A program made the translations under genes and the position numbers. 64,000 nt of DNA from an uncultured bacterium. GTDB lineage: Bacteria > Joyebacterota > Joyebacteria > Joyebacterales > Joyebacteraceae. The DNA is taken from NCBI GenBank assembly GCA_964521425.1, contig CAZFRO010000007.1, forward strand, positions 50,106 through 114,105, read 5' to 3'. This document shows, piece after piece, positions 32,654-49,509 of the stretch (the first letter of the stretch is position 1; the number at the start of each line of letters is the position of its first letter). The notes below the pieces were generated by a model, which did not search any database, was not told the origin of the DNA, and saw only the letters and a program-made list of their open reading frames with translations.

Positions 32654-35254
32654 CTACCGAATGACCGTGATCTTCCTTCCTCCTGAGACAACCCGACCGT
32701 CTACTTCAAGGGCCGCTAGGTAGATGCCCGAGGCGAGTGGAGACCCGTTCCGAACATCAGCCAACCGGAACTCCCACTGGTTGTCCCCCCGTCCGAACTG
32801 GTGCACCGGAGATGACCCGACCTCCCTTCCACCCACATCGTAGACGCGAATGCGCACCGATGACGATTCGGGAAGGAAGAACCCGACACGGAGACTACTA
32901 TTGAGCGGCGTGGGGTTCGGATAGATCGACGTGAGCCCCTGGCTGTTGATGTCCGATTGCTGGGCAGGGTCACCTTCCAACCCGGTTGCGATCAACTCCT
33001 CGACCAGGACCTCATCGATGTAGACGGCCTCTGCGCAGTCCTGCGGAAGAAACTGAAGCTTGATTCGACGTGGGCCAATCCCGTATCCGGGATTGTCGAA
33101 CTCTGTCTCATGCTCGCTCCACGCCGGAGACGAACTCAAGATCTCCGACAGGAGCTCCGCACTTGTCTCCGCGTCAATGACGGTCACTCTGAACGTCGTT
33201 GGATCCGGTGCGTAGTGATGGAAGCCCATGTGGTAGGTCTGCACATCCGTGTTGGCGTGGAAGATGTGTTGTGCGCCCTCTCCGTTGCACCACTGGTCGA
33301 AGACCTGCAAGTAGGCTTCCCCGGCTACGGTGGAGATGTCATCCCGGCGGACCGCATTCACCGATGTGGTTTCGCCGATTCTGTTAGTCCAGAAGTCCGG
33401 TGTCCCATTGGCGTCAACATCATCCTCAAACGAGTAGTTCATAACTTCGTAGTCACTCGATGGGAGCATCTGCTCAACTCGGATGTCGTCGACGTACGCC
33501 TGAAGATCTCCAAACTCACCGCTCACTGTGGTCTCGTAGCGCAACCGGAGGTCCTCAAGCACTGTGCCCTGCATTGGACTAAGATCAGCGTAGATGAATT
33601 GCCATCCCGACATCAGAGGAGAGCGCCACTTCGCATTCAGTGTCTGGCCATTCTGATCAACGATGTCCACATTGTCCTTGATTCTCCCCACCGGGGTGCT
33701 CCCGTCGATCACAAGCTTGTCATTCCCATCCGGCGAATTGACGATGTTGATCCAGTAGGACAGTACCATGTTCCGCTCCACCGGAAGGTCAAGGTCATCA
33801 AGTAGCATCCACTCGATGTAGTCGGCGCTACCAGAGGCATCGGTCATCTCAACTCGGAGCATTCTGTCCGAGTTGAGCGGGGATACGTCGCCCTCCACGT
33901 GCACGACGCGTGTGTTCTCCAAACTTATGCCACTCGACTTCTCGACAACATGATCCTGCGAGACCGCTGCATCCTCGATTTCCATCCCCTCTGAGAACGC
34001 GGTCGGTGGTGGTATGGGGTGCAACTTGATGTCAAGGGCTGGATCCCCCATAAGCACATACTGCCTCAACAGAAGCTCGTGGCCGCTCTCCTCCTCTAGA
34101 CACAACCCCACCGTCCCAGAGAAGAGTCGCCCAAGATTGCGAATCCCATCATGCAGCATCATGTGAGCGAACACCCCGTTGATGTGCTTCGATTCCACGA
34201 TGTCGCTCACGTGTGTTGGACCTACCAGCGCGATGGCACCGCGGTCATCTGCACTGAACAGCAGATCCTCGCAGATCGATAGTCCCGAAGTCGTAGATAG
34301 GCTTCGATAGAAATAGGCCGGCAAGCACGTAGCGGCGAAGATCACCGGTAAATGGTTGGTTGTGCCCAAGCTCTGCGTGAACGTCGGCTCGCCGCTTGGG
34401 AAGAACTCGGCCATGAGGACGAGGTTCTCGTGGCCGTATGTGTTGCCGAACGCGTTGATGAAACCGTAACCGTCGTTGACCGCGGACCGCGTGGCTGAAG
34501 TGGCTCCTTCGGGCCACTGACCGGCGACTTGGTAGTCCCGCGAGTACAGAGTCACAGGAGCCGGAGTCCACTCACTGAACTCCTCGTCAAACAGCTCGTC
34601 GTTGAGGGTTCTGTAGACCTCGTTGTTGGTGTTGATGTTGGCGTCACCAACGAGCATGAGGATTCTGCCGAGCCACGCCGGAACACCTGCGATTCCGTCG
34701 TAGTAAATGATCTTGTCCACGATGTTCGTCAGCTGTGCACTGTCGGCAACGGGGAGCCGCCCGATCCGCATGATCGGTTTCTTCTCCGACGGGTCCGGTG
34801 ACTCAACGTACCAGCCATCATTGGCAAACCATCTATTGCCGTGCCATTCGGCGAAGTCGTTGTAGGTGAGCATCGCCGGCAGATGATTGCCGTTCGTGGC
34901 GTCGATCATGTCGGGAGGATCGGCGTCCACCATATTGGCGTCCCCGATCAGCAGCAGATAGGTCGGCGCGATCTTCCAGTGTTCGTAGGCATGGAGCACG
35001 AAGCTCCGTATCTTCTCTACATCGCTGGCCCCCGAGAACGCAGCTGTGACTTCGGATGTCAGCACAACGCAACTTCGAAGCGATTGGCTCCGGTGATCAC
35101 AAAGACGCTGAGCACCTGCCTGAAACGAGTCATGAGACAGGATCACGTAGTCATACTGATGGTGTGTCGCAAGCGGGTCAAGCGCTGAACTCGGTGCTGC
35201 CATCAGAAGAACAAGGGCCAGCATCACCAGAACCAGGAATGGACGCGACGCCAT
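32654..35254 (-). CDS. Secreted C25 (gingipain-family) peptidase-domain protein with FlgD-Ig/T9SS-type C-terminus
   Basis: YLLLIGD, IGRLP, ATC, GAIA and YVLMGDPAL motifs; C-terminus YPNP...SGIY...RKITVIR. Confidence 0.82.
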   Translation of the reverse strand: MASRPFLVLVMLALVLLMAAPSSALDPLATHHQYDYVILSHDSFQAGAQRLCDHRSQSLRSCVVLTSEVTAAFSGASDVEKIRSFVLHAYEHWKIAPTYLLLIGDANMVDADPPDMIDATNGNHLPAMLTYNDFAEWHGNRWFANDGWYVESPDPSEKKPIMRIGRLPVADSAQLTNIVDKIIYYDGIAGVPAWLGRILMLVGDANINTNNEVYRTLNDELFDEEFSEWTPAPVTLYSRDYQVAGQWPEGATSATRSAVNDGYGFINAFGNTYGHENLVLMAEFFPSGEPTFTQSLGTTNHLPVIFAATCLPAYFYRSLSTTSGLSICEDLLFSADDRGAIALVGPTHVSDIVESKHINGVFAHMMLHDGIRNLGRLFSGTVGLCLEEESGHELLLRQYVLMGDPALDIKLHPIPPPTAFSEGMEIEDAAVSQDHVVEKSSGISLENTRVVHVEGDVSPLNSDRMLRVEMTDASGSADYIEWMLLDDLDLPVERNMVLSYWINIVNSPDGNDKLVIDGSTPVGRIKDNVDIVDQNGQTLNAKWRSPLMSGWQFIYADLSPMQGTVLEDLRLRYETTVSGEFGDLQAYVDDIRVEQMLPSSDYEVMNYSFEDDVDANGTPDFWTNRIGETTSVNAVRRDDISTVAGEAYLQVFDQWCNGEGAQHIFHANTDVQTYHMGFHHYAPDPTTFRVTVIDAETSAELLSEILSSSPAWSEHETEFDNPGYGIGPRRIKLQFLPQDCAEAVYIDEVLVEELIATGLEGDPAQQSDINSQGLTSIYPNPTPLNSSLRVGFFLPESSSVRIRVYDVGGREVGSSPVHQFGRGDNQWEFRLADVRNGSPLASGIYLAALEVDGRVVSGGRKITVIR

Positions 35255-35271
35255 GATTGCCTCCTGGACTG

Positions 35272-36747
35272 TTATCGAATCACAGCCAGCTTCTGTACAG
35301 TGAGTTCCTCTGGGGTCTCCAGACGGACGAAGTAGACGCCCTGTGCGACAGGCTCCCCTCGCGTGTTGCGGCCGTTCCAAGACCACAATGTGGTGCCCGG
35401 CTGGAGTGCACCATCATGAAGTGTCTGCACTCTCTGGCCTAGGGCATTGTAGACGGCAAGCGTCCCGGTACCTGCTTGGGGGAGATCGATCTGGAAGGAA
35501 AACCCGTCACTTGACGGATTGGGATACGACGAGATCTTCGCGGCGACAGGGAGGGCAGTCCCCAGATGGACCTGACCCATCCGGTACGTGTTGCCATACG
35601 CGTCATTCGCCGCCAAGCGATACCACACTGCAGTCCATCCCTCTGGGAGCGCATCAACGAACTCGTAGTCCTGTTGCCCCTCCACGGTGAAGATCGGATC
35701 GACGTTTGCCTGCGCGTACGGACCCGCTGGGACCGGAGCTCTGAGCACGTCGAAAGAGTCTATATCCCCGAGGAAAGACACACGCCAACGAATCGCGGTT
35801 CGCATCACACCGCCTTCGAACCACAGATCCCCGCCAATCTCACCGGCGAGCAGCGGAACTGCCGGCGGGTGCTCAGGATCTCCCTCGTCAGCATTGCCCA
35901 TGGCATCCCACCATCGGATTCGCCAGACGTGCTCCAAGTCATCAGTGGCCACCCAGCTCAGCTTGTACTGTAGCGTATTCGGATTATTGTTGCCCGAGGG
36001 GGGCGTTGTATCGTAGTAGAACTCCGAGGCTGCCGGCGGATATGCTCCGCCTTTCGCAGCCATCGCTTCGAAGTCGAAGTCGTCCACGACGATATCGTCA
36101 ATCATGAGTTCCATTCCCCCAATGCCGTTGTAGACATCCCCTACTGGGTCAGCTGCCCAGATCTGCCAGACTGATGGACTGCCAACGGGAGCCGTGTGCA
36201 CAACCGGGTTCTGCGTGATCTCCGGCAGTGTGCTGTCTGCATTCCACAAAGCACTGCTCAGGGCGGATCTCCGAGGGCTTCTGAGGTCAGCATCCGTGAT
36301 GCTGGCATCGGATGAGAGGAACAGCTCAAAATGCAGATGAGAGCCCGTGTCGATGGCACCCACGGTGGTGCTGACACCAATCCAGGATCCGACCGTGAGA
36401 CCAGTGTTCGGCACTATGTGGATCATCTGGCACAGTGCGTAGTCGCCGCTCTGCCGATTCGACCCCAGCAGCGCGACGAAGTCGGCCCCGACAGCGATGA
36501 CTCTGCATAGCGAGCCCGACTCGATCGGGGGGTAGGTCGGATCGCCCGCCGTGACTGCGATATCCACGCCGGTGTGTAGGTTGAAGGGTGATATCTGGTC
36601 AATCTGCATGAAGGCGTTGTAGACGAACTGCCCCGTCGAGCTTGGCAATGGGTCTCCGGAGAAGACCTGTTCCCGTGCCCCAGAGTGGCACGGCGCGAGG
36701 AGAAGGGCTGCCGCAACGCCAAGAAGCAGGAACTGTCGTGCATCCAT
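35272..36747 (-). CDS. Secreted M23-like metallopeptidase domain protein with FlgD-Ig/T9SS-type C-terminus
   Basis: HTGVD (HxxxD) and HLH (HxH) zinc motifs; YPNP...WNGRN...GVYFVRL...QKLAVIR. Confidence 0.7.
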   Translation of the reverse strand: MDARQFLLLGVAAALLLAPCHSGAREQVFSGDPLPSSTGQFVYNAFMQIDQISPFNLHTGVDIAVTAGDPTYPPIESGSLCRVIAVGADFVALLGSNRQSGDYALCQMIHIVPNTGLTVGSWIGVSTTVGAIDTGSHLHFELFLSSDASITDADLRSPRRSALSSALWNADSTLPEITQNPVVHTAPVGSPSVWQIWAADPVGDVYNGIGGMELMIDDIVVDDFDFEAMAAKGGAYPPAASEFYYDTTPPSGNNNPNTLQYKLSWVATDDLEHVWRIRWWDAMGNADEGDPEHPPAVPLLAGEIGGDLWFEGGVMRTAIRWRVSFLGDIDSFDVLRAPVPAGPYAQANVDPIFTVEGQQDYEFVDALPEGWTAVWYRLAANDAYGNTYRMGQVHLGTALPVAAKISSYPNPSSDGFSFQIDLPQAGTGTLAVYNALGQRVQTLHDGALQPGTTLWSWNGRNTRGEPVAQGVYFVRLETPEELTVQKLAVIR

Positions 36748-36757
36748 GATCCTCCCC

Positions 36758-38035
36758 CTATTCTGAGTAGTCATAGACTCTGATCCGCTCCGTGGTTCGG
36801 TAGTTCACAGGCACAGGAAGGGGGTGCCGCTGAATCCCGACGAACAGGTATGTGCCCTCCCACTGGAGTCCGCCCATGTTCACTTGGTCAGCGGTGGCGA
36901 TCGGCTCGTCAACCTCAAGCATCGAGTCGTCTAGCACTACGACCCGCTTCGTCACACGGCTCGGGTTCCCTTCTGCATTGAGAATCTGAAGAGCAAGGAG
37001 GGATCCATCATCACAGACAGCTGCAGTAACGATGAAATCGTCGGCTTGATAGTCGCCGAGTCGAATTGGATTGAAGGGATCGCTCACGTCGTAGTATGTC
37101 GCCGCTCCCAATCCCATCTGAATCACAACCATCCGGGTGCCATCCTCGGAGTAGTACCGTATGCCGTCCTCAACATCAACACTCGACGACTGGCTGGTTC
37201 CTATGTCCAGGGCAACGGTCTCTGCTGCCTCCTGCCGGCAGGTGCGGCGAAATATCAGTGTCTCTCCTGAGGGAGTCAGATAGAGCTGGCCGTAGCTGCT
37301 GCGGGTGGGACTGGACTCCATAATGGCTTCGCCCTCTGGGTTGAACGCCACGAGCACCTGCCGTGCCGAATCCACCGCGGGTGTCGCCTGTTCCCCGTAC
37401 CTAGCTACTGCGGCGAACCTCCCGGATGTCGCCGAGACGGCTGCAGAGCCTGTCGGGCGCAAGTAGATCGGAAACGGGTACGGTCCAGGAGGTTCGTTGC
37501 TCCCCCCCTGGAAGAAGAGGGTCTGTTGCGGCGTATGTACCATGGCAAGACCATCCGGCGAGAGTAGCTCCCACCCGAGGATCTCCTGATTCGGAAGATC
37601 GAGAAGATTGACAAACTTCACCGGGACACTGGCCCCGCGCATGTCCTCGCCCGGCAGAGAAAGCACTGTGAACGGCGTGTCAGGGGAGTCCCTAGAGACC
37701 CGCGACTCAGCGAAGAATGCGAGGTATGATCTGCTGCCTCGCCCAAGTGTCCCATCGGCGTTTACGTACAGTGGAGCCAGCTCCAGCCGTATGTCCAGTG
37801 CCAGTCGCTCTCCGATTTGCTGCGATGAATCAACCACCCGCATGATGCGCAGATGGTCTTTTGGAAACAGCAGTGTGGAACCGAAGTGGTTCACCTCCAG
37901 GTGCGCCGTTTCCCCTTCTATGCCAACGGACCACACAAGCCTGTCCCTCGTACGGGTCCCTTGCGCGGAGCAGAAACCGCAGTTCACAGCAGTAGCTAGC
38001 ACGAGCACGATGAACCAACGCGCGATTGATCTCAT
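36758..38035 (-). CDS. Secreted hypothetical protein, beta-strand-rich (possible propeller)
   Basis: Signal peptide; GAAGGAG RBS; short spacing to the downstream genes. Confidence 0.6.
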   Translation of the reverse strand: MRSIARWFIVLVLATAVNCGFCSAQGTRTRDRLVWSVGIEGETAHLEVNHFGSTLLFPKDHLRIMRVVDSSQQIGERLALDIRLELAPLYVNADGTLGRGSRSYLAFFAESRVSRDSPDTPFTVLSLPGEDMRGASVPVKFVNLLDLPNQEILGWELLSPDGLAMVHTPQQTLFFQGGSNEPPGPYPFPIYLRPTGSAAVSATSGRFAAVARYGEQATPAVDSARQVLVAFNPEGEAIMESSPTRSSYGQLYLTPSGETLIFRRTCRQEAAETVALDIGTSQSSSVDVEDGIRYYSEDGTRMVVIQMGLGAATYYDVSDPFNPIRLGDYQADDFIVTAAVCDDGSLLALQILNAEGNPSRVTKRVVVLDDSMLEVDEPIATADQVNMGGLQWEGTYLFVGIQRHPLPVPVNYRTTERIRVYDYSE

Positions 38036-38383
38036 GGCCTGCACTCCTTCCGTCATCCCGGTCACACCGTGTCTGGGCGGCTGCCGCGACGAACTCGCCC
38101 GCGCAGCATCGACTCTGCGCTCGGAATACAGAGGGCTTATGTCCGCAGCACAGATCTGAACACCGTGTATGCAGACTGCGGCCAGCGAGTGAACGACCGA
38201 CTCCCTCCGTTATCGTAGAATAGTACCGCAATGGGAGTCCCGAGGGCAACCGAGATTTACGTCATGTAGCGCGTGGCCACAGGATCTCTTGCCGACGGCA
38301 TATCTAGGCCGGAGTCGATGTGGAAGTGAACCCGGACGGAAAGGCGAGTGCCCTCGGGCTGGGAACCGCGCCCTACAAAGAGA

Positions 38384-40870: not shown

Positions 40871-41470
40871 TCAGGCCACGGCCCCCCCGGATGCGTAGTA
40901 ATGAGCGAGCCTCTCGCGAAGAAACAGCCTGGCTCGATGAAGGCGGGACTTAACGGCAGGGATACTCAGCCCAAGGATGTCAGCCGTCTCCTCGGTCGAT
41001 ATCCCGTGCACGTCCCTGAGCACGAAGACGATACGATTGTTTGCGGGAAGGGCGTTGATGTGCCGGGTCAGAACGCCACCCAGCTCCTCGTTCATGACCG
41101 TCGAAGCCGGGTCGGTGGTCCAGTCCGCAACCTCACGGGGAATCTCAGCCTCGCCGAGCTCGAGCGGTTGGTCGAGCGACACCGTATCGAGCTTCCTCTT
41201 CCGGATTCGCATGAGGCATGCGTTCGTGGCGATGCGGTAGATCCAGGTCGAGAACCTGGCTTCCTCACGGAAAGAGGGGAGCGCCTTGTAGGCTTTGACG
41301 AAGACTTCCTGAAGACAGTCCTCGGCGTCCTCGGGGTTCCGGAGCATCTTGATGCAGAGGCCGTAGACGTTCGCCTCGTGCCGCTCTACGAGCAGACCGA
41401 AGGCGTCATTGTCGCCGCCCCTTGCTCTGCCAACGAGCTCCGTATCGGTAGGATTTGTGTGATCGACCAT
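40871..41470 (-). CDS. ECF RNA polymerase sigma-70 factor
   Basis: DAEDCLQEVF, FSTWIYRIATN and AVKSRLHRAR motifs. Confidence 0.93.
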   Translation of the reverse strand: MVDHTNPTDTELVGRARGGDNDAFGLLVERHEANVYGLCIKMLRNPEDAEDCLQEVFVKAYKALPSFREEARFSTWIYRIATNACLMRIRKRKLDTVSLDQPLELGEAEIPREVADWTTDPASTVMNEELGGVLTRHINALPANNRIVFVLRDVHGISTEETADILGLSIPAVKSRLHRARLFLRERLAHYYASGGAVA

Positions 41471-41497: not shown

Positions 41498-41983
41498 CTA
41501 GATCCTGCTGCGCTCCGGCATCCTGTCACTGAATTCCTCGCGGACTATCTGCTCCACGAGTCGCGGGACAGCCTCTTCTGCCATCTCCAGCAGCTCGGTG
41601 CTTCGTTCAGCACCCGTCCCCACCTCTATGGCATAGACGGATATCTCCTGAGGCATTGTCGCGCCACCCATGCCCGGAATCTCCACCGTAGCCAGGTACT
41701 CGGCCCCATTCTCCGACTCGCGAGCGTTCACGAGCTCAAGATCTTCGAGTCCGAGTCTCCTGAGTTCACCGACGTCCCAGTCATCGCCCTGGACGCAGTC
41801 CACGACCACGACCTTCCGGTAGCCGGCCACGACCCCGAGCAGATCTACGCCCGAGGCCGGAGTCTCAATAATGTCGATACTCGGATCCCTGAGTGCGGCA
41901 TGAAGACCGCGGGCCACATCGAGCCCCATTCGTTCCTCAGCAAAGCCCGGGTCGCCAAGCCCCAATATGAGCGTCTTGATCAT
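41498..41983 (-). CDS. Hydrogenase maturation protease-like protein (HybD/HycI fold) with degenerate motifs
   Basis: KTLILGLG...VVVVDCV...YAIE pattern; the usual GN...DDG and His motifs are altered. Confidence 0.7.
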   Translation of the reverse strand: MIKTLILGLGDPGFAEERMGLDVARGLHAALRDPSIDIIETPASGVDLLGVVAGYRKVVVVDCVQGDDWDVGELRRLGLEDLELVNARESENGAEYLATVEIPGMGGATMPQEISVYAIEVGTGAERSTELLEMAEEAVPRLVEQIVREEFSDRMPERSRI

Positions 41984-41991
41984 AAGTCCAC

Positions 41992-43623
41992 CTACGCCAG
42001 AACATCGACCTTGTTCTTTGCCTTCTCCGGCCTGCGGTATTCCGGCAGGAGTATCGGTGCCACGCGGTTCCGCCCGACTCTCTTTGCGGTCAGTTCCTTG
42101 TGGAACTTCTTCAGATGGTCGAGCGTTAGCTTGCCGGGACGCTTGATGCTTGCTGCCCGCTCTGCTGCAGCGGCTCCCGCGCGCTTTCCGAACACGACGA
42201 CATCGAGAAGCGAGTTACCCATGAGCCTGTTGCGGCCATGGATGCCGCCCGCCAGCTCGCCCGACGCATAGAGGTTCTTGATCGTAGTCTCTGTATCCAC
42301 CTTGATCTTGAGTCCACCGTTCTGATAGTGCTGCGTCGGGTAGATCAGGATCGGTGTCTTGCTCATGTCGATCCCGAAGCGCTGGTACTGGCGGTACATC
42401 GCCGGAAGCCGCTTCTTGATCGTTCCCGGGCCATGAATATCCTCGATAATCGGCGTGTCGAGCCACACCACCGAGTAGCCGGACGGAGTCTCGACACCGT
42501 TCTTCCGCTCGCTGCACTCTCTGATGATCGCGGCTGCCTCGACATCGCGCGTCTCGAGTTCGTAGACAAACCTGTTGCCCTTCGCGTTCACGAGCTGACC
42601 ACCCAGTCCCCTGACCTTCTCGGTGACGAGCTGACCCAGAAGCTGCTCTGGATATGCGGCGCCGGTCGGGTGGTACTGGATGGTGTCCATGAAGACGAGA
42701 GGCACACCGGCACGGTAGCCGAGCACGAGTCCGTCCGCCGTCGCGCCGTAGTGGTTGGTCGTCGGGAATCCGTCAACGTGAAGGCGCCCGGCGCCACCTG
42801 TCGCCAGAATGACCGTCTTCGCCCGCGCGATGAGATACTCGTGAGTCTCCATATTATAGAGGACCGCTCCGGTGACCTTCTTTCCATCTGTCAGAAGCTC
42901 ATATGCAGGCGAGAACTCTACGCACGGGATCTCCCTGTTCTGAACCTCGTCCTTCAGGGTCTTCATTATCTCGCCGCCGGTGTAGTCGCGCGCCGCATGC
43001 ATGCGCTTCCGCGATGTCCCACCACCGTGGATCGTGAGCATCGTCCCATCCGGGTCCTTGTCGAACATCACGCCGAGTTTCTCGAGCCACGCGAGAACGC
43101 CCGGCGCATCTCCGACGAGAGCCTCCACGAGGTCGGGGTCGTTGAAGTACCAGCCGCCCCCGATCACATCCAGATAGTGGGTGGCCGGAGAATCGTTCGG
43201 CTTGTCAGCACCCTGGATCCCGCCCTGCGCCATGACCGTGTTGGCGTCTCCGACCCTGAGCTTCGTGACGAGAAGCACGTCGGCGCCGGCGTCATGAGCC
43301 ACGATCGCAGCAGCAGCGCCCGCACCACCACCCCCCACAACCAGCACATCCACGTCGTAATCGATGTTGGAGAGGTCAAACTTCTCCGGATCGATCATGC
43401 TGCGCGCCTCAAGGACATTGGCGAACTCCTTCGGCGTCAGCGTGCCCTTCGAGGGGCCGACCTTCAGCTTCCTGAAGATTCTCTTGATGTAGTCCGGGTG
43501 GTGGTTCTCGAGAAGCTCGACCTTGCCAACGGCGTCGAGGAGTGGCATCTGCTGCTTCTGCCGTTCCTTGCGCGTCTTCTCGACAAGCTTCATCGACTTC
43601 TGCATGTCTGGTGTGTAGTACAC
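41992..43623 (-). CDS. Soluble fumarate reductase/succinate dehydrogenase-family flavoprotein (TfrA-like)
   Basis: GGGGAG, NTVMAQGG, LATGG, QYHPT, TEKVRG, TRD, HYQNGG and HGRNRLMGNSL motifs. Confidence 0.88.
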   Translation of the reverse strand: MYYTPDMQKSMKLVEKTRKERQKQQMPLLDAVGKVELLENHHPDYIKRIFRKLKVGPSKGTLTPKEFANVLEARSMIDPEKFDLSNIDYDVDVLVVGGGGAGAAAAIVAHDAGADVLLVTKLRVGDANTVMAQGGIQGADKPNDSPATHYLDVIGGGWYFNDPDLVEALVGDAPGVLAWLEKLGVMFDKDPDGTMLTIHGGGTSRKRMHAARDYTGGEIMKTLKDEVQNREIPCVEFSPAYELLTDGKKVTGAVLYNMETHEYLIARAKTVILATGGAGRLHVDGFPTTNHYGATADGLVLGYRAGVPLVFMDTIQYHPTGAAYPEQLLGQLVTEKVRGLGGQLVNAKGNRFVYELETRDVEAAAIIRECSERKNGVETPSGYSVVWLDTPIIEDIHGPGTIKKRLPAMYRQYQRFGIDMSKTPILIYPTQHYQNGGLKIKVDTETTIKNLYASGELAGGIHGRNRLMGNSLLDVVVFGKRAGAAAAERAASIKRPGKLTLDHLKKFHKELTAKRVGRNRVAPILLPEYRRPEKAKNKVDVLA

Positions 43624-43635
43624 CGTTGTGCCCTC

Positions 43636-44319
43636 CTAGTCTGCCGGCTCGATGTCTCTGGCCTCGTAGAGTTCGGCAAGCTCGCGCCGCTTTATGGATT
43701 TCAGACCCGCAATCTCCTTGTCGTACTTGCCTCTCTTCATCTCCTTCATGCGCTTGTCCAGATCCTTCGCGCGAGGAGCGATCTTGCTCGAGTAGAGGCG
43801 ACGACAGAGAAGAGCAACATTGTACTGCACTATTTCAGCCGGGCACCGCGACGCGCAGAGACCGCAGAGCAGGCAGTCGAACGAGAGATCCGCGGCCTTG
43901 GCAATGTCGCCTCTGAGGGCCGCCTGGATGTACTCCATGACCTCAATGTCCTGCGGGCACGCCCTCGTGCAGGTGTTGCAGGCCAGACAACGGAACACCT
44001 CGGGGTACAGCTTGAGCACCGTCTCGGAGTTGGGCTTGAGCCTATCCAGATTGTATGTCGCCTTGTTGCCCGGGAAGAACGGGATCTCCGCGAGGTACAT
44101 CTCGTCCTGGACCATCTCCTGGCAGGCGAGTCCCACCTTGAGACGGTAGTCGTCCTTCGTGCGATAGACCGTGCCGCAGGCCCCGCAGAACGCCCCCCTG
44201 CATCCACACCCTCTGATGAAGCGGTAGCCGGCGTATTCCATCGCCTTCATGATGGTGAGATCGTGAGGGACCTCGTACGCCTTCCCCATCACGTAGATGG
44301 TTACCATCTCTGATGCCAT
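43636..44319 (-). CDS. Fe-S subunit ([2Fe-2S] plus two [4Fe-4S]), FrdB/SdhB-like
   Basis: CRGAFCGAC...LAC; CLACNTCTRACP; CLLCGLCASRCP. Confidence 0.85.
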   Translation of the reverse strand: MASEMVTIYVMGKAYEVPHDLTIMKAMEYAGYRFIRGCGCRGAFCGACGTVYRTKDDYRLKVGLACQEMVQDEMYLAEIPFFPGNKATYNLDRLKPNSETVLKLYPEVFRCLACNTCTRACPQDIEVMEYIQAALRGDIAKAADLSFDCLLCGLCASRCPAEIVQYNVALLCRRLYSSKIAPRAKDLDKRMKEMKRGKYDKEIAGLKSIKRRELAELYEARDIEPAD

Positions 44320-44390
44320 CTTGGATCGTCTCCCTGTTGGTCAGACGGGAGTCGCGCCAACACACAAACGCTTCCCGTGCGCCGCCTGCG

Positions 44391-44882
44391 TTATCGCTTC
44401 GCCTTGGCCTTCTTCTTCGCGGTCGATACCTTCACGCCTTTGGCCTCGTCCGGAGCCTCGGCGCCACTCAACCTGTCGGTGAGATCGAGTTTCATCGGAC
44501 CGAGATCTCTCACAGTCTCGACGAACTCGCTCATCACGTTGACAACCTTGTCACCCTCTGCGGCCGATATCCAATCGAGCCTCAGCCGGTCACTCTCGAT
44601 ACCGAGTGACTCAAGCACCGGCTTCAAGAGCGCAACGCGACGCATCGTGTTGTAGTTGCCATCCTGGTAGTGACAGTCTCCGGGGTGACATCCACCAACC
44701 AGCACGCCGTCGGCTCCCTCGCGGAAGGCCCAAAGAATGTGCTGCGGGTCGACCCGGCCGCTGCAGTTCACGCGCAGCACGACGCCGTTCGGCGGATACT
44801 GCTTGCGTGAGGTCCCTGCGAGGTCGGCGCCCGCATACGTGCACCACTTGCAGAAAAAGCAGACGATTCTGGGTTCGAACAT
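44391..44882 (-). CDS. mvhD: Methyl-viologen-reducing hydrogenase delta subunit ([2Fe-2S] adaptor)
   Basis: FCKWCTYAGAD, CSGRVDP, GADGV, GCHPGDCHY and WISAAEG motifs. Confidence 0.93.
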   Translation of the reverse strand: MFEPRIVCFFCKWCTYAGADLAGTSRKQYPPNGVVLRVNCSGRVDPQHILWAFREGADGVLVGGCHPGDCHYQDGNYNTMRRVALLKPVLESLGIESDRLRLDWISAAEGDKVVNVMSEFVETVRDLGPMKLDLTDRLSGAEAPDEAKGVKVSTAKKKAKAKR

Positions 44883-44883
44883 A

Positions 44884-46842
44884 TCAGTCCTCCAGGGCCG
44901 CCGAGACCATCATATAGAGTTGGTTGTCTGTGAGGTTCTTCTGCTGCACTGTCGCAGACGGACAAGCGGCGATACAAGCACCGCAGCCCTCGCAGATCGC
45001 CTCCTGCACACGCGCAACTCCCTTTTCATCATCGAACTCGACCGCGTCGTACGGACAGACCGAGATGCAGATCCTGCAGCCCGCGCATTCGTCCTCGTCT
45101 ATCCAGGCAACGACCGGCTCTCTGTGGTACTCCTCCTCCGCGAACAGTGCGCAGACCTTGCTCGCCGCGGCCGATGCCTGAGCAACGACCTCCGGAATGT
45201 CCTTCGGTCCCTGCGCCGCACCGGCGAGATAGAAGCCGGGGGCCAGACTCTCGACCGGCCTGAGCTTCGGGTGCGCCTCGGAGTAGAATCCCCACTGGTT
45301 CATCTGAATCTTGAGCATCTTCGCAAGCTCGGTCGCGGTAGCGCTCGGGACCATCGCCAGACCGAGCACGACCATGTCAGCCGCGATCTCGACCTTCTGA
45401 CCGGTGAGTGTGTCAACGCCCCACACCATCACCTTTCCGTCGTCCTCAAAGAGCTTGGAGACCTTTCCTCTTATATAGAGGACGTCGTCCTCCTCCGCGG
45501 CCCGCTGGTAGAACTCCTCGTAGTCCTTGCCGGGCGTTCGCACGTCCATGTAGAAGACGTATGCCTGGCCGTCATGCTCGTTGTGCTTGTAGAGCATCGC
45601 GTGCTTCGTGAGGTACATGCAGCAGACCTTCGAGCAGTAGGGCATGTGGCCCTCCGGGTCGCGCGATCCGACGCAGGTCAGGAAGACGACCTCCTTCGGG
45701 ATCTCGCCATCCGACGGCCTCTTTACAACTCCCCCTGTCGGACCGGACGCGGAGAGGAGACGCTCGAACTGGAGACTTGTCACGACGTCCTTGATGTCGC
45801 CGCCTCCGTACTCACCGATATTCACGATCGGGTAGAGATCGAACCCGGTCGCGACGATGATGGCCCCCACTTCCTCATCCAGGAACTCGTCCTTCTGCTC
45901 GTAGTCTATCGCGTCAACCGGACAGACCTTCTTGCAGACACCGCACTTCCCGTTCTCGAAGTAGATGCAGTGGTCGCGGTCGAGAACCGGCTCGTTCGGA
46001 ACTGCCTGCGCGAACGGTGTGTAGATGGCCTTTCTCTCGCTAAGCCCCTCGTCGAACTCGGAGACAGTCTTCGCAGGGCACTTCTCGATACAGAGACCGC
46101 AGCCGTTACAGACATCGCGGTTCACATACGCGGCCTTCTTCTTGATCTTGACCTTGAAGTTGCCGACGTAGCCTGAGACGTCTTCTATCTCACAGTAGGT
46201 GAGAAGCTTGATGCGCGGGTGCTGGGACACCTCCACCATCTTCGGCGTGAGGATGCACTGCGAGCAGTCAAGCGTCGGGAAGGTCTCCGACAGCTGCGCC
46301 ATGTGTCCACCGACCGACGGCTCCTTCTCGACCAGAACAACGTCGTGCCCGGCGTTGGCGATATCGAGGGCGGCCTGGATGCCGGCGATGCCGGCGCCCA
46401 CGACCATGGCCCGATGCGTCATCGGTACGGAGATCGGTTCGAGCGCCTCGTTCTGCTTCGCCTTCTCGATCATCGTCTTGATGATCTTGATGGCCTTCTC
46501 GGTGGCCATCTCCTTGTCGCCTCTGTGCACCCAACTGCAGTGCTCGCGGATGTTCGCCATCTCCATGCGGTACTGATTGAGATCGGCCGCCGCTCCCGCC
46601 CTGCGGAAGGTGGCCTCGTGCAGTGTGGGCGAACATGCGGAGACCACGACCCCGGTGAGACCGTGTTCCTTGATGGCGTCCCTTACCAGGCCCTGACCCG
46701 GATCGGAACACATATACAGGTAGTCCGTCGAGTACGCGACACCAGGGTACTTGGCCAGTTCCTCAGCGACGCGCTTGACGTCCACCACCCCGGCGATGTT
46801 CGTCCCACAGTGACAGACGAAGACGCCAATGCGATGCTCCAT
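44884..46842 (-). CDS. hdrA: Heterodisulfide reductase subunit A (flavin, electron-bifurcating family)
   Basis: GVFVCHCGTNI, NIREHCSWVH, GAGIAG, ETFPTLDCSQC, CVGSRD..YCSKVCC, HPKLRP and GPKDIP motifs; inserted and C-terminal ferredoxin domains. Confidence 0.96.
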   Translation of the reverse strand: MEHRIGVFVCHCGTNIAGVVDVKRVAEELAKYPGVAYSTDYLYMCSDPGQGLVRDAIKEHGLTGVVVSACSPTLHEATFRRAGAAADLNQYRMEMANIREHCSWVHRGDKEMATEKAIKIIKTMIEKAKQNEALEPISVPMTHRAMVVGAGIAGIQAALDIANAGHDVVLVEKEPSVGGHMAQLSETFPTLDCSQCILTPKMVEVSQHPRIKLLTYCEIEDVSGYVGNFKVKIKKKAAYVNRDVCNGCGLCIEKCPAKTVSEFDEGLSERKAIYTPFAQAVPNEPVLDRDHCIYFENGKCGVCKKVCPVDAIDYEQKDEFLDEEVGAIIVATGFDLYPIVNIGEYGGGDIKDVVTSLQFERLLSASGPTGGVVKRPSDGEIPKEVVFLTCVGSRDPEGHMPYCSKVCCMYLTKHAMLYKHNEHDGQAYVFYMDVRTPGKDYEEFYQRAAEEDDVLYIRGKVSKLFEDDGKVMVWGVDTLTGQKVEIAADMVVLGLAMVPSATATELAKMLKIQMNQWGFYSEAHPKLRPVESLAPGFYLAGAAQGPKDIPEVVAQASAAASKVCALFAEEEYHREPVVAWIDEDECAGCRICISVCPYDAVEFDDEKGVARVQEAICEGCGACIAACPSATVQQKNLTDNQLYMMVSAALED

Positions 46843-46852
46843 CACTCCTCCC

Positions 46853-47764
46853 CTAGACCAGTTTCTTCCCGGCCAGAACCGGACGTGGATCAACGTAGTT
46901 ATCAGAGAAATCCAGGTGTTCCTCGTCGATACCGAGCGCAATCCCAAGGAGCTGCGTGAAGTAGATGACCGGGATCTTCTTGAATCCCTTCACCCGCTTC
47001 GCCATCTCCTTCTGCTTCCTGTCGAGATTGTACAGACACAGAGGACAGGTCGTGATGATCAGGTCGGCGTCCCGCTTGATGGCCGAGCTGAGAACGGTCT
47101 GCGAACACGCGATGGCCGTCTCCTCATCTCGCACTATCTGAAATCCACCGCAGCATTCGGCCTTCATTGGGAAATCGACGACGTCACAGCCGAGCGTCTC
47201 GAGAAAGTCCTCGAAGATCGTCGGCCGCTCGGGGTCGTCGAACTCCATCTCCTTCTTCGGGCGAAGCAGCATGCATCCGTAGTAGGGAGCCACCCTGAGA
47301 CCCTTGAGGCTGGTCTTCAAGCTCTTCGCCACCTTGTCGAACCCGACCACGTCCCTCAACATCTCTATATAGTGGAGCACCTCAACCTGGCCGACATAGT
47401 CCTCTTCGAGGTAGCTCTCCATCTCAGCTCGTTCGTCGGTGTCCGCTCTCAGGAAGAGGTTCGCCTTCTCTCTCTTCTCCTCGTCCTCTCGCATGACCCT
47501 GTTCGAGCGCTTGAGCACGTTGTAGCAGAACGAGCAGAGCGTCACGACTTTGTCGCCCATCCTGGAGGCGTATGCCAGGTTTCTGACGCCGGCCAGAATG
47601 TCCATCACCGAGTCAGTCGCCAGAGGAAAGACCGCGCCGCAACACGTCCAGACCGGAAGCTCCTCGAGTTCCACGCCGAGGGTCTTGGCACATTCCCTCG
47701 ATGCCCTGTCGAAGTCGAGAGCACGTTCGTGCAGAGTGCATCCCGGGTAGTAAGGTATCTTCAT
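46853..47764 (-). CDS. hdrB: Heterodisulfide reductase subunit B (CCG domains)
   Basis: YYPGC, WTCCG, CSFC, PYYGC, ECCG, TCPLC and YFTQL motifs. Confidence 0.95.
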   Translation of the reverse strand: MKIPYYPGCTLHERALDFDRASRECAKTLGVELEELPVWTCCGAVFPLATDSVMDILAGVRNLAYASRMGDKVVTLCSFCYNVLKRSNRVMREDEEKREKANLFLRADTDERAEMESYLEEDYVGQVEVLHYIEMLRDVVGFDKVAKSLKTSLKGLRVAPYYGCMLLRPKKEMEFDDPERPTIFEDFLETLGCDVVDFPMKAECCGGFQIVRDEETAIACSQTVLSSAIKRDADLIITTCPLCLYNLDRKQKEMAKRVKGFKKIPVIYFTQLLGIALGIDEEHLDFSDNYVDPRPVLAGKKLV

Positions 47765-47781
47765 CCGTGCCTCCGACTTCC

Positions 47782-48198
47782 CTATCCGTTGAGCAACTTT
47801 CTGAGAGCGCTTACGACGCCCATCTGTGGAGCCTTCGATGCCATCACGCTCGACACATCGCCCGCGTCCACCGCGGGTATCGCCAGCCGCTTCCTGAGAA
47901 CCGTGGCTCTGAGAACATCACAGATGCTTGAGAACTCCACGCCTTTTGGGCAGCGCGCCGAGCACTGCATGCACGAGGCGCATATCCAGATGGTCTTGGA
48001 ACTCAGGACCTTCTCGATCTGACCCAGCTGCAGGAGTCGGATGACCTCGTTCGGGACGACATCCATCTCGTCCACGACGGGACAGCCGGCGGAACATCTC
48101 CCGCACTGATAGCAGGAGGTGATCGACTGTCCAGACAGATCTTCGACCCGTTGGATGCTTTCATTTCTGATGGAGTCTGTGCTCAGCCTAATCCTCAT
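47782..48198 (-). CDS. hdrC: Heterodisulfide reductase subunit C
   Basis: CYQCGRCSAGCP and IWICASCMQCSARCP; GGAGG RBS before ATG 48198. Confidence 0.93.
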   Translation of the reverse strand: MRIRLSTDSIRNESIQRVEDLSGQSITSCYQCGRCSAGCPVVDEMDVVPNEVIRLLQLGQIEKVLSSKTIWICASCMQCSARCPKGVEFSSICDVLRATVLRKRLAIPAVDAGDVSSVMASKAPQMGVVSALRKLLNG

Positions 48199-48326: not shown

Positions 48327-48355
48327 AGTTTACTATGTGCGGGGGTGAGTGTCAA
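48327..48355 (-). promoter_or_regulatory. Sigma70-type promoter of the hdr operon
   Basis: TTGACA-N17-TAAACT. Confidence 0.65.
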
Positions 48356-48525: not shown

Positions 48526-49509
48526 ATGAGAACTGGAAGCTCAATCCTGCCCGCTTTGACGGCGGTGACCCTCGCCCTCCTCGTCACGTGGTGCGGAGCG
48601 ACGGAGCCGGTAGCCACATTCTCGATCGTGGCCTTCGATGAGGCGACAGGCGAGCTTGGCATCGCCGTTCAATCGAAGTTCTTCGCGGTGGGATCGGTAG
48701 TGCCGTGGGCAAGAGCCGGTGTCGGAGCCATCGCGTCGCAGGCATTTGGAAACACGACGTTCGGACCTCGTGGACTGGACCTCATCGAGGAGGGTCTCTC
48801 GCTCGAGGAGGTCCTCGACCACCTGTTGACCGATGACGAGAAGCGGGAGCAGCGTCAGATCGGCATCGTCGATGCATACGGGAATTCGATCGCTTTCACG
48901 GGCGACGAGTGCATGGACTGGGCGGGCCACCGGTCCGGGCGCAACTACTCGGTCCAGGGCAACATCCTGGTGAGCGAGAAGACCGTCGATGCCATGGCAA
49001 GCGCGTTCGAGGAGACAGAGGGGCTTCTCGGGGAGCGTCTCATGCAGGCAATCGAGGCCGGGCAGGAGGCGGGAGGCGACTCGCGGGGGATGCAGTCGGC
49101 GGCGATTCTCATCGTCAGTGAGGGCGGCGGGTACGGAGGTTACAACGATCGCTACTGCGACCTGAGGGTCGACGATCATGGGAATCCGATCGCGGAGCTC
49201 AGGAGGATCTTCAACATCTGGAAGGAGGTTGCACTCATCACTGAGGGCTACCGTCTTCTCGATGAGGGGGATCATGACAAGGCCATCGCCGTAGGCAGAA
49301 GAGCCGTGGAGCAGTACCCGGAAAGCGCCGAGTGCCGCTACCACCTCGCATGCTATCTCTCTCGCGGGGGCATGTTTGGTGAAGCGATGCGCGAACTCGA
49401 GAAGGCTGTCGGGGGTGACGTAGAACTCGGTTCGCGGGCGAAGCTGGATCCGGATTTCGAACCGCTGAAGAGCGATCCCGGATTTCATCTGATCACGGAT
49501 GCAGAGTAG
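48526..49509 (+). CDS. DUF1028 (Ntn-hydrolase-like) protein with C-terminal TPR
   Basis: Signal segment then ATFSIVA; SVQGNIL, GGDSRG.QSAA and DLRVDDH motifs. Confidence 0.88.
   Translation: MRTGSSILPALTAVTLALLVTWCGATEPVATFSIVAFDEATGELGIAVQSKFFAVGSVVPWARAGVGAIASQAFGNTTFGPRGLDLIEEGLSLEEVLDHLLTDDEKREQRQIGIVDAYGNSIAFTGDECMDWAGHRSGRNYSVQGNILVSEKTVDAMASAFEETEGLLGERLMQAIEAGQEAGGDSRGMQSAAILIVSEGGGYGGYNDRYCDLRVDDHGNPIAELRRIFNIWKEVALITEGYRLLDEGDHDKAIAVGRRAVEQYPESAECRYHLACYLSRGGMFGEAMRELEKAVGGDVELGSRAKLDPDFEPLKSDPGFHLITDAE

Follow-up and report, generated by a model that had tools for sequence, protein, structure and literature searches.

A soluble fumarate-reductase-type pair encoded with HdrABC-MvhD in a Joyebacterota bacterium, and its likely supply with electrons from H2

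Introduction

Outside the methanogens and sulfate reducers, the compound that accepts the electrons of bacterial HdrABC, the heterodisulfide reductase (Hdr) module, is an unsettled matter in the energy metabolism of anaerobes. The question is raised in a concrete form by an operon of an uncultured bacterium of the Joyebacteraceae (phylum Joyebacterota; GenBank assembly GCA_964521425.1, contig CAZFRO010000007.1). In the 64,000 nucleotides analysed here (positions 50,106 to 114,105 of the forward strand; hereafter the window, whose own numbering is used unless a contig is named), hdrC, hdrB, hdrA and mvhD are followed by genes for an iron-sulfur (FeS) protein, a flavoprotein of the fumarate-reductase type and a relative of the hydrogenase maturation protease HycI. 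What does the FeS-flavoprotein pair reduce, where does it attach to the Hdr module, and what supplies the electrons? We propose an Hdr-coupled soluble fumarate reductase for which HdrABC-MvhD would act as the electron-delivery machine, driven by H2 and bifurcating to ferredoxin, and we rate the chances of this reading as about even.

Results

A seven-gene operon

The seven genes lie head to tail on the minus strand in the order hdrC-hdrB-hdrA-mvhD-FeS-flavoprotein-HycI-like, separated by gaps of 1-17 nt except for the 71 nt between mvhD and the FeS gene. An earlier note on this DNA had listed six of them, with order and coordinates all correct, and had overlooked the HycI-like gene. Its observation that MvhAG, Fdh, FlxABC and FrdCD are absent agrees with our open reading frame (ORF) and Pfam annotation, in which none of these genes lies inside the operon.

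The Hdr module appears intact. The 138-residue product of hdrC (47782-48198) contains two CX2CX2CX3CP [4Fe-4S] motifs (Fer4_8, 44 bits), with Cys 29, 32, 35, 39, 73, 76, 79 and 83 invariant in 25 aligned sequences; the curated profiles CoB_CoM_SS_C (61.5 bits) and QmoC (64.8 bits) both match under their cut-offs. HdrB (46853-47764, 303 residues) has two CCG domains (PF02754, 75 bits in two stretches), and all ten Cys of the two CCG motifs (9, 41, 42, 77, 80, 164, 204, 205, 240 and 243) are invariant in 30 sequences. The HdrB model TIGR03288 (183 bits) and the model of SdhE, the anchor of methylmenaquinol:fumarate reductase (MFR), score nearly equally (168 bits), each under its cut-off. Residues 2-648 of HdrA (44884-46842, 652 residues) align to residues 3-648 of the methanogen structure 5odc_A with 708 bits, and the HdrA2 profile gives 808 bits, under the methanogen equivalog cut-off of 1100 set by NCBI. 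Judged by this alignment, HdrA is of the full-length, bifurcating type, with a thioredoxin-reductase-like flavin adenine dinucleotide (FAD) domain and ferredoxin domains. MvhD (44391-44882, 163 residues) is a [2Fe-2S] adaptor matching the whole PF02662 profile (177 bits) and VhuD (129 bits), and its Cys 11, 14, 40, 65 and 70 are invariant in 25 sequences.

The FeS protein and the flavoprotein as a fumarate-reductase-type pair

The FeS protein (43636-44319, minus strand, 227 residues) combines a Fer2_4 match (24 bits) with a dicluster ferredoxin domain (Fer4_9, 38 bits), a domain order shared with FrdB/SdhB at remote similarity only. Twelve Cys are invariant among 40 sequences (C40, C45, C48, C66; C111, C114, C117, C121; C149, C152, C155, C159), a pattern that fits one [2Fe-2S] and two four-Cys [4Fe-4S] clusters. 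Both ferredoxin motifs thus have four Cys, and the [3Fe-4S] cluster typical of the complex II FeS subunit is lacking. A fold search returned weak matches (template modelling score, TM, of at most 0.33), with FrdB/SdhB (at most 0.28 over the whole chain) amid many ferredoxin-domain matches. As the earlier note had stated, the protein carries no CCG domain (no PF02754 match). Two matches to longer, fused FeS proteins were found, a FeS-flavoprotein form (P0122, 638 residues) and a FlxA-like-FeS form (P0123, 521 residues). Each is represented by one or two metagenomic sequences, P0123 by a single one, and they could be true fusions or neighbouring genes that have lost the stop codon between them. 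No FeS-CCG or FeS-HdrB fusion was seen among these longer forms, which is weak evidence.

The flavoprotein (41992-43623, minus strand, 543 residues) belongs to the PF00890 superfamily of fumarate reductases, succinate dehydrogenases and aspartate oxidases (258 bits) and falls under every curated cut-off. Its best NCBIfam match is TfrA (354 bits against a cut-off of 718, covering positions 6-409 of 546 in the profile), whereas the Sdh/Frd profiles (299 bits) and the NadB profiles (298 bits; cut-off 453) score practically alike. It is truncated, in that no helical or C-terminal domain (PF02910) follows, and it has a conserved N-terminal extension of its own of 88 residues. Aligned to residues 4-419 of Escherichia coli FrdA, it keeps His318, Thr334/Glu335, Arg359, His432 and Arg466, all of them invariant across 16 orthologues; we take their counterparts to be the FrdA active-site residues H232, T244/E245, R287, H355 and R390. 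At the position of the His that binds FAD covalently it has Asn128. Work on the E. coli enzymes associates non-covalent FAD with a reductase rather than a succinate dehydrogenase, and because of Asn128 the flavoprotein fits the former. A structure model of moderate quality (mean pLDDT, the predicted local distance difference test, 72), which served only to confirm the FrdA-like fold, has E. coli FrdA as its top match, with FrdA/SdhA entries leading the list.

Could the pair be part of a better-known enzyme encoded in the same genome? The 2.45-Mb assembly (43 contigs; G000 in our survey) also encodes a canonical sdhCDAB on contig C12 and a nadA-nadB pair on contig C3, whose NadB scores 671 bits, so that the Hdr-linked enzyme counts as a third paralogue, and a dedicated one. 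We rejected it as a stand-in for NadB, given the genuine nadA-nadB pair and its own 298 bits against the 453-bit cut-off, and as a part of respiratory complex II, given the canonical sdhCDAB and an operon devoid of an anchor gene. Compared with complex II, it has the His/Arg/Thr/Glu set of the dicarboxylate site and lacks the anchor, the covalent-FAD His and PF02910. It likewise differs from TfrAB in its partial, sub-cut-off match to TfrA and in a FeS protein with no fused CCG domain. Together with the neighbourhood of the orthologues and their linkage to Hdr (below), the features of the two proteins lend good support to a cytoplasmic, anchor-less fumarate-reductase-type enzyme coupled to the Hdr module.

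Distribution and gene neighbourhood of orthologues

The flavoprotein family is very large, with at least 7999 proteins at E ≤1e-30; among the matches listed (the best 120), the proteins have 529-548 residues and are at least 65% identical to the flavoprotein of the window. Judged by the names of the nearest homologues alone, the organism would probably be a Candidatus Eisenbacteria. In a species-genome collection, 498 of 598 pattern matches encoded a relative, and the best 80 of these (58-81% identical), all in other species, were taken as loci. Neighbouring ORFs were clustered, common clusters named by Pfam, and the genes then counted by tblastn, with counts of upstream genes limited to the 49 loci that have at least 7.5 kb of upstream DNA. 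The 80 loci come from Bacillota (Lachnospiraceae, Oscillospiraceae, Christensenellaceae, Sporomusa), Anaerolineae, WOR-3, Fibrobacterota, Synergistaceae, Thermoplasmata and Culexarchaeum.

The FeS gene stands directly 5' of the flavoprotein gene in 78 of the 80 loci, and in the other two the contig ends there. Upstream, HdrA was found in 44, HdrB in 41, HdrC in 42 and MvhD in 41 of the 49 loci. The survey with and without flx that the earlier note had proposed returned both forms: 35 of the 49 loci show the complete order hdrB-hdrC-hdrA-mvhD-flxC-flxB-flxA-FeS-flavoprotein (the Flx genes were confirmed by Pfam in the Sporomusa rhizae locus, L029), and three have HdrABC and MvhD without Flx, namely L009 and L018, from the lineage of the window, and L057, from the Anaerolineales. 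Five loci have no Hdr gene within 10 kb (L017, L025, L031, L037, L048), and the architecture of the remaining six is mixed. L011, L013 and L016 retain HdrABC and the pair without MvhD, and L012 reads hdrC-hdrB-FeS-flavoprotein, its 15.6 kb containing nothing that matches HdrA or MvhD. Because of these architectures, we regard the FeS-flavoprotein pair as the constant unit, Hdr as its usual but not obligatory companion, and the donor-side genes as the variable part.

Within the lineage of the window, the run mvhD-FeS-flavoprotein-HycI-like recurs in nine of 12 loci, the window locus included; gene order of this constancy indicates that the arrangement is not due to chance. As to the other three, L096 is truncated on both sides, the sequence of L103 starts only with the FeS gene, and L099 (genome G026) has an HdrB-like gene instead of mvhD immediately 5' of the FeS gene. 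A second flavoprotein copy, 53-59% identical, was noted in ten lineage genomes (G002, G003, G005-G008, G010, G014, G025 and G030).

The genes next to the pair point to fumarate metabolism. An Asp-Al_Ex permease adjoins it in 31 of the 80 loci, a malate dehydrogenase of the lactate dehydrogenase (LDH) type in 28, the class I fumarase beta and alpha subunits in 21 and 19, and class II fumarase in 20; at least one of fumarase, malate dehydrogenase or the permease lies before or after the pair in 53 loci. KorAB, SucD and malic enzyme adjoin it in other loci. These neighbours bear on the possibility that the true substrate of the flavoprotein is a compound other than fumarate, for instance L-aspartate or some other amino or unsaturated dicarboxylate. 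The near-equal NadB and Sdh/Frd scores, the failure to reach any curated cut-off, the unique N-terminal extension and the missing C-terminal domains would all be compatible with this. Against it stand the fumarate-pathway neighbours and the genuine NadA-NadB elsewhere in the genome; moreover, NadB has, to our knowledge, no FeS partner. In Pseudoclostridium thermosuccinogenes, the only fumarate reductase named for the succinate pathway, so far as the available text of PMC7282089 goes, is encoded in an operon of the same described content. We therefore consider a substrate other than fumarate highly improbable.

Predicted attachment of the pair to the Hdr module

The earlier note had assigned the pair to the slot next to mvhD, where it would replace MvhAG or FlxABC. 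According to this topology, fumarate/succinate would enter at the mid-potential site on MvhD, electrons from ferredoxin and a thiol would confurcate onto fumarate, and HdrB would handle a thiol/disulfide couple. Several observations are in line with it: the FeS gene comes straight after mvhD in the window, in L009 and in L018, the CCG Cys of HdrB are all intact, loci of Chloroflexi and Thermoplasmata show the order mvhD-flxC-FeS-flavoprotein, and one FlxA-FeS fusion protein exists.

For a complex model of four chains, each supplied as an alignment of our own, the FeS protein was set as the partner of HdrB, HdrC and MvhD. The median score of three runs was 0.84, compared with 0.13 for the best of three controls, and replacing HdrB by an unrelated protein lowered the score to 0.13. 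Among solved complexes 58 of 80 reach the 0.84 mark, against 2 of 110 mismatched pairs; for a model such as this one, built from own alignments and with more than two chains, the calibration is only approximate. The runs had at least 61% of contacts in common, with a partner pLDDT of at least 77. Confident contacts link residues 97-138 and 160-162 of the FeS protein to residues 8-14, 38-43, 54-62 and 104-118 of HdrB and to the C-terminus of HdrC (106-137). These stretches contain Cys9 and Cys41 of the first CCG motif of HdrB and Cys111 and Cys114 of the FeS protein. The model thus supports, though it does not show, docking at the first CCG cluster, with the FeS protein bound to HdrB/HdrC. A MvhD-FeS interface, for which the earlier note had called for a prediction, did not emerge: the four-chain model contains no confident FeS-MvhD contact, although HdrB, HdrC and MvhD were all on offer.

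Gene architecture leads to the same view. In the 35 loci with the full Flx order, MvhD is followed by its own FlxCBA and the pair comes only after these genes, and L011, L013 and L016, which have HdrABC and the pair, have no MvhD at all to hold the proposed slot. The assignment to MvhD took gene order for topology. Established potentials speak against it as well, in that a couple near +30 mV cannot feed the bifurcating flavin and, if fumarate were the acceptor at that site, the energy of ferredoxin would be wasted. The genome, furthermore, encodes a MvhGA hydrogenase (see below). Docking on MvhD hence seems quite unlikely to us, and the model makes it more likely that the pair forms the high-potential acceptor arm. 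What stands of the Hdr-coupled, cytoplasmic and quinone-independent complex that had been suggested is its anchor-less fumarate-reductase type and its gene linkage to an HdrABC-MvhD module of the bifurcating kind; its place in the MvhD slot does not.

Candidate electron donors

A gene set mvhG-mvhA-protease lies outside the window on the same contig, ~71 kb upstream of the operon (G000:C7:17846-20887). MvhG (321 residues) matches 5odc_E over its whole length (234 bits), and MvhA (503 residues) matches 5odc_F with 399 bits and VhuA with 408 bits; no further partner subunit was found beside the three genes. By its gene content, MvhG plus MvhA alone is the make-up of the hydrogenase that is normally joined to HdrA through MvhD. 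The genome thus has MvhD in the operon and a two-subunit, group 3c-like [NiFe] hydrogenase unlinked to it. "No donor module", the verdict of the earlier note, holds for the operon and fails for the contig, and mvhAG elsewhere is the first half of what that note itself had named as speaking against its proposal.

Among 31 genomes of the phylum, which represent one family and eight genera, 29 encode the flavoprotein (the two genomes in which it was not found are 67% and 87% complete) and 28 encode MvhA. In four of them (G000, G013, G023 and G030) the two genes lie 65-74 kb apart on one contig. The Anaerolineales offer a linkage that we find more telling than co-occurrence within the lineage, as far as gene positions can indicate: in L051 and L057 a mvhD-mvhG-mvhA cluster lies on the opposite strand, at a distance of 1.5-7 kb from the pair. 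The L057 cluster follows hdrC-hdrB-hdrA, and the stretch of L051 ends at mvhD. We also noted a protease gene after mvhD-mvhG-mvhA in L051, and split or duplicated HdrA-like genes preceding the pair in both loci.

The conserved place of the HycI-like gene may be another sign of a connection with a [NiFe] hydrogenase. This last gene of the operon (41498-41983, minus strand, 161 residues; PF01750 36 bits, TIGR00072 53.5 bits), a paralogue of HycI-type hydrogenase maturation proteases, starts 8 nt downstream of the flavoprotein gene. In 11 of the 12 lineage loci it comes next after the flavoprotein, and the contig of the twelfth stops 208 bases past the flavoprotein. Aligned to E. coli HybD, its product keeps a Glu and an Asp at the positions of two residues that are presumably metal ligands. 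The protease beside mvhGA reads SPHG, whereas the HycI-like protein lacks the His there and its paralogues are variable at this site; it is probably degenerate and not an ordinary protease.

Could NADH be the donor instead? No flxA, flxB or flxC lies in the operon, which sets it apart from FlxABCD-HdrABC systems, and with the query used FlxC had no match anywhere in the genome. Candidates for Flx elsewhere were rejected: the FlxA- and FlxB-like genes (39% and 25% identity) are AsrAB/HydBG-like members of a Nuo-like cluster on contig C29, with no mvhD adjoining. That cluster (L008:4712-14030, G000:C29, outside the window) includes NuoD, NuoC, NuoH and NuoL/M-like genes, molybdopterin-type and 4Fe-4S proteins, and NAD(P)H-module genes resembling AsrA/AsrB or HydB/HydG. 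A second mvhD on contig C10 was also rejected as a partner of the fumarate reductase, as it sits in a separate cluster between a short HdrA-like gene (477 residues) and GltD-like genes. This mvhD (L007:9768-10595, G000:C10, outside the window) has an in-frame TGA at the conserved Cys of the N-terminal C-x-x-C (CCFWUAYG, TGA = U). A tRNA-Sec gene lies at C15:4815-4913, and the second mvhD probably encodes a selenocysteine-containing MvhD, to judge from its reading frame. Taken together, H2 via MvhGA, and not NADH, is the likely donor here.

Proposed electron flow and its alternatives

In the mechanism that we propose, the MvhGA-type two-subunit [NiFe] hydrogenase would oxidise H2 and pass electrons through the [2Fe-2S] cluster of MvhD to the flavin of HdrA, where the pair would be split. 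One electron would go uphill to ferredoxin. The other would go downhill through HdrC and the CCG clusters of HdrB, the latter acting as a relay rather than a disulfide reductase, and then through the FeS subunit ([4Fe-4S], [4Fe-4S], [2Fe-2S]) to the non-covalent FAD of the flavoprotein, where fumarate would be reduced to succinate. The net reaction would be 2 H2 + ferredoxin(ox) + fumarate -> ferredoxin(red, 2 e-) + succinate + 2 H+, with fumarate in the role that the heterodisulfide of coenzymes M and B (CoM-S-S-CoB) has in methanogens. The potentials given in the accessible parts of two sources are ~+30 mV for fumarate/succinate (PMC5947623) and -414 mV for H2 with ~-500 mV for ferredoxin (PMC9304861). 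With these values, the downhill arm would be ample for ferredoxin reduction. The genome has possible users of reduced ferredoxin in two Rnf/Nqr-type clusters and in genes of the KorA/PFOR type.

No thiol or disulfide would be needed if fumarate serves directly as the high-potential acceptor. A thiol could still take part in two steps, with MvhAGD-HdrABC reducing a low-molecular-weight or protein disulfide and the pair acting together with HdrBC as a split, TfrAB-like thiol:fumarate reductase. This would agree with TfrA as the best NCBIfam match of the flavoprotein, with the intact CCG Cys, and with the TfrB profile, which is matched piecewise by the FeS protein, HdrC and HdrB, as expected if TfrB is a fusion of such parts. 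However, the single HdrB and HdrC of the operon would have to serve both reactions. The queries used turned up no paralogue of HdrB or HdrC in the rest of the genome, and the operon contains no thiol-carrier gene (DsrC, lipoate-binding protein or similar). Coenzymes M and B, for their part, are cofactors of methanogens. A thiol-mediated route therefore strikes us as quite improbable.

Bifurcation might also be absent altogether, as HdrA-like proteins occur in non-bifurcating systems such as Qmo as well. Electrons would then flow from H2 or reduced ferredoxin via HdrA and HdrBC to fumarate or, in a syntrophic reversal, from succinate and reduced ferredoxin to H2. The full-length alignment to the bifurcating HdrA of 5odc argues against the former. 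Succinate oxidation to H2 is very unfavourable by its potentials, the genome has SdhCDAB for succinate oxidation, and the non-covalent FAD suggested by Asn128 disfavours that direction in the light of the E. coli work. In favour of reversibility, the consulted portion of PMC5947623 reports that the anchor-less FrdABEF of Syntrophobacter fumaroxidans is abundant both with fumarate and with sulfate, and its authors discuss operation in either direction. All in all, we hold a non-bifurcating or reversed system to be unlikely.

Several points weigh against an H2-driven, bifurcating fumarate reductase. The genes mvhGA lie outside the operon and are unlinked to it, and their co-occurrence with the flavoprotein within one family-level lineage is no independent evidence, the genomes being kin. 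The five loci devoid of Hdr genes within 10 kb indicate that Hdr is not obligatory for the enzyme family. In the window itself, no fumarase or malate dehydrogenase adjoins the operon; the class I fumarase of this genome is found at C7:7837-9271. The ten intact CCG Cys of HdrB would be compatible with a real disulfide substrate. The complex model was built without HdrA, the flavoprotein and MvhAG, so that other docking sites are possible, and the fusion P0123 could hint at a contact on the donor side. Finally, our literature search found no biochemical test of any family member.

Relation to known systems

Pairing of Hdr with a soluble fumarate reductase has precedents, as the earlier note had rightly suspected: relevant clusters or enzymes appear in the parts of PMC7282089, PMC6315080, PMC9723716 and PMC5947623 that we drew on. 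The closest is the 'succinate operon' of P. thermosuccinogenes, which comprises, according to the available text, a fumarase, a seven-gene Flx-Hdr set, a two-gene fumarate reductase and a putative transporter (PMC7282089). The same text credits a 2019 preprint by Koendjbiharie and van Kranenburg with the idea of coupling the reduction of fumarate to that of ferredoxin. Both operons place a two-gene fumarate reductase after the Hdr module, and a coupling of succinate formation to ferredoxin is proposed for both. By its described content, the P. thermosuccinogenes operon corresponds to the order of the 35 Flx-type loci, whose flavoproteins are ~60% identical to that of the window. The operon of the window differs in lacking flxA, flxB and flxC, in the direct succession of mvhD and the FeS gene, in its terminal HycI-like gene and in its likely donor, H2 through a MvhGA encoded elsewhere instead of NADH.

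The electron-delivery part resembles MvhAGD-HdrABC of hydrogenotrophic methanogens (PDB 5odc, 8rvu, 9sw2): HdrA, MvhG and MvhA match 5odc with 708, 234 and 399 bits, MvhD matches PF02662 with 177 bits, and HdrB and HdrC have the same cofactor motifs. In contrast to the methanogen complex, the system described here is bacterial, its mvhGA and hdr genes are not linked, HdrB/HdrC carry, in the model, an additional FeS-flavoprotein pair, and the proposed acceptor is fumarate instead of CoM-S-S-CoB. The thiol:fumarate reductase TfrAB of Methanothermobacter, reportedly described by Heim et al. in 1998, likewise combines FeS and CCG-type modules with a fumarate-reducing flavoprotein in a soluble, anchor-less enzyme. 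Here, unlike in TfrAB, CCG is found in a separate HdrB, HdrA and MvhD are present, and the match to TfrA is partial (354 against 718 bits).

In reductive tricarboxylic acid (rTCA) clusters of tubeworm symbionts and Thioflavicoccus mobilis, tfrAB is interspersed with flxABCD-hdrABC and korABCD, which the authors, in the text available to us, read as a possible electron-shuttling complex (PMC6315080). Compared by that description, these clusters share a soluble, Tfr-like fumarate reductase linked to an Hdr module and differ in being of the Flx type and embedded in a carbon-fixation cluster. In Culexarchaeia, SdhA is encoded beside HdrBC genes (PMC9723716). The S. fumaroxidans FrdABEF, as described in the accessible part of PMC5947623, has no transmembrane subunit, is induced by fumarate and has never been purified. 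A HdrB-like CCG subunit that partners an SdhB-type subunit is a known design, since SdhE does so in type E succinate:quinone reductase (SQR) and in MFR, and HdrB of the window matches the SdhE model almost as well as its own. Type E SQR, MFR and FrdABEF (compared by partial description) are nevertheless held to use quinones or unknown partners, and HdrA and MvhD are missing from them. For the Flx-less, Mvh-linked form we found nothing in print, and PMC12054007 mentions neither fumarate, succinate, Tfr nor Sdh.

Surroundings of the operon

A GGAGG ribosome-binding site precedes the ATG of hdrC (48198). A promoter-like site on the minus strand (TTGACA-17-TAAACT, 48327-48355), ~130 nt upstream of the hdrC start, agrees with the consensus at 10 of 12 positions and is only suggestive, the scan having found two such sites where 2.3 were expected from shuffles. 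An extracytoplasmic function (ECF)-type sigma-70 gene (40871-41470, minus strand) begins 27 nt past the HycI-like gene on the same strand and may be co-transcribed with the operon. On the other side, a DUF1028-TPR fusion protein is encoded divergently (48526-49509, plus strand). Three large ORFs (910, 500 and 435 residues; 32654-38065, minus strand) have starts resembling signal peptides. As seen in the translations alone, those of 910 and 500 residues end in similar beta-rich tails (...ITVIR, ...LAVIR) reminiscent of C-terminal secretion-sorting domains.

Discussion

The pairing of Hdr with a soluble fumarate reductase is widespread, and for the NADH-dependent (Flx) form the general idea is already in print, as the consulted parts of PMC7282089 and PMC6315080 attest. 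The operon of the window is an Flx-less, probably H2-driven version, with a HycI-like gene, of a kind of complex that has been proposed but is biochemically uncharacterised.

A broader and more tentative extension would be that 'orphan' HdrABC complexes of bacteria and archaea, a large class, have fumarate as their physiological acceptor on the high-potential side. The CCG protein HdrB would then be a pure relay into a docked FrdB-like subunit, no thiol would take part, and the donor would be interchangeable, NADH through Flx in gut Firmicutes and H2 through Mvh in the present lineage. We think this possible, with the balance leaning somewhat against it. The model would contribute a concrete docking site on HdrB, and the version in the window suggests that H2, too, can drive this acceptor arm. 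If true, the extension would define a new class of flavin-based bifurcation, an H2- or NADH-dependent ferredoxin:fumarate oxidoreductase that hundreds of anaerobic species would possess. With fumarate as the acceptor, succinate-forming fermentation and the reductive branch of the tricarboxylic acid cycle would yield reduced ferredoxin. A great many anaerobes, common gut Clostridia among them, would gain additional energy from it by way of Rnf or hydrogenases.

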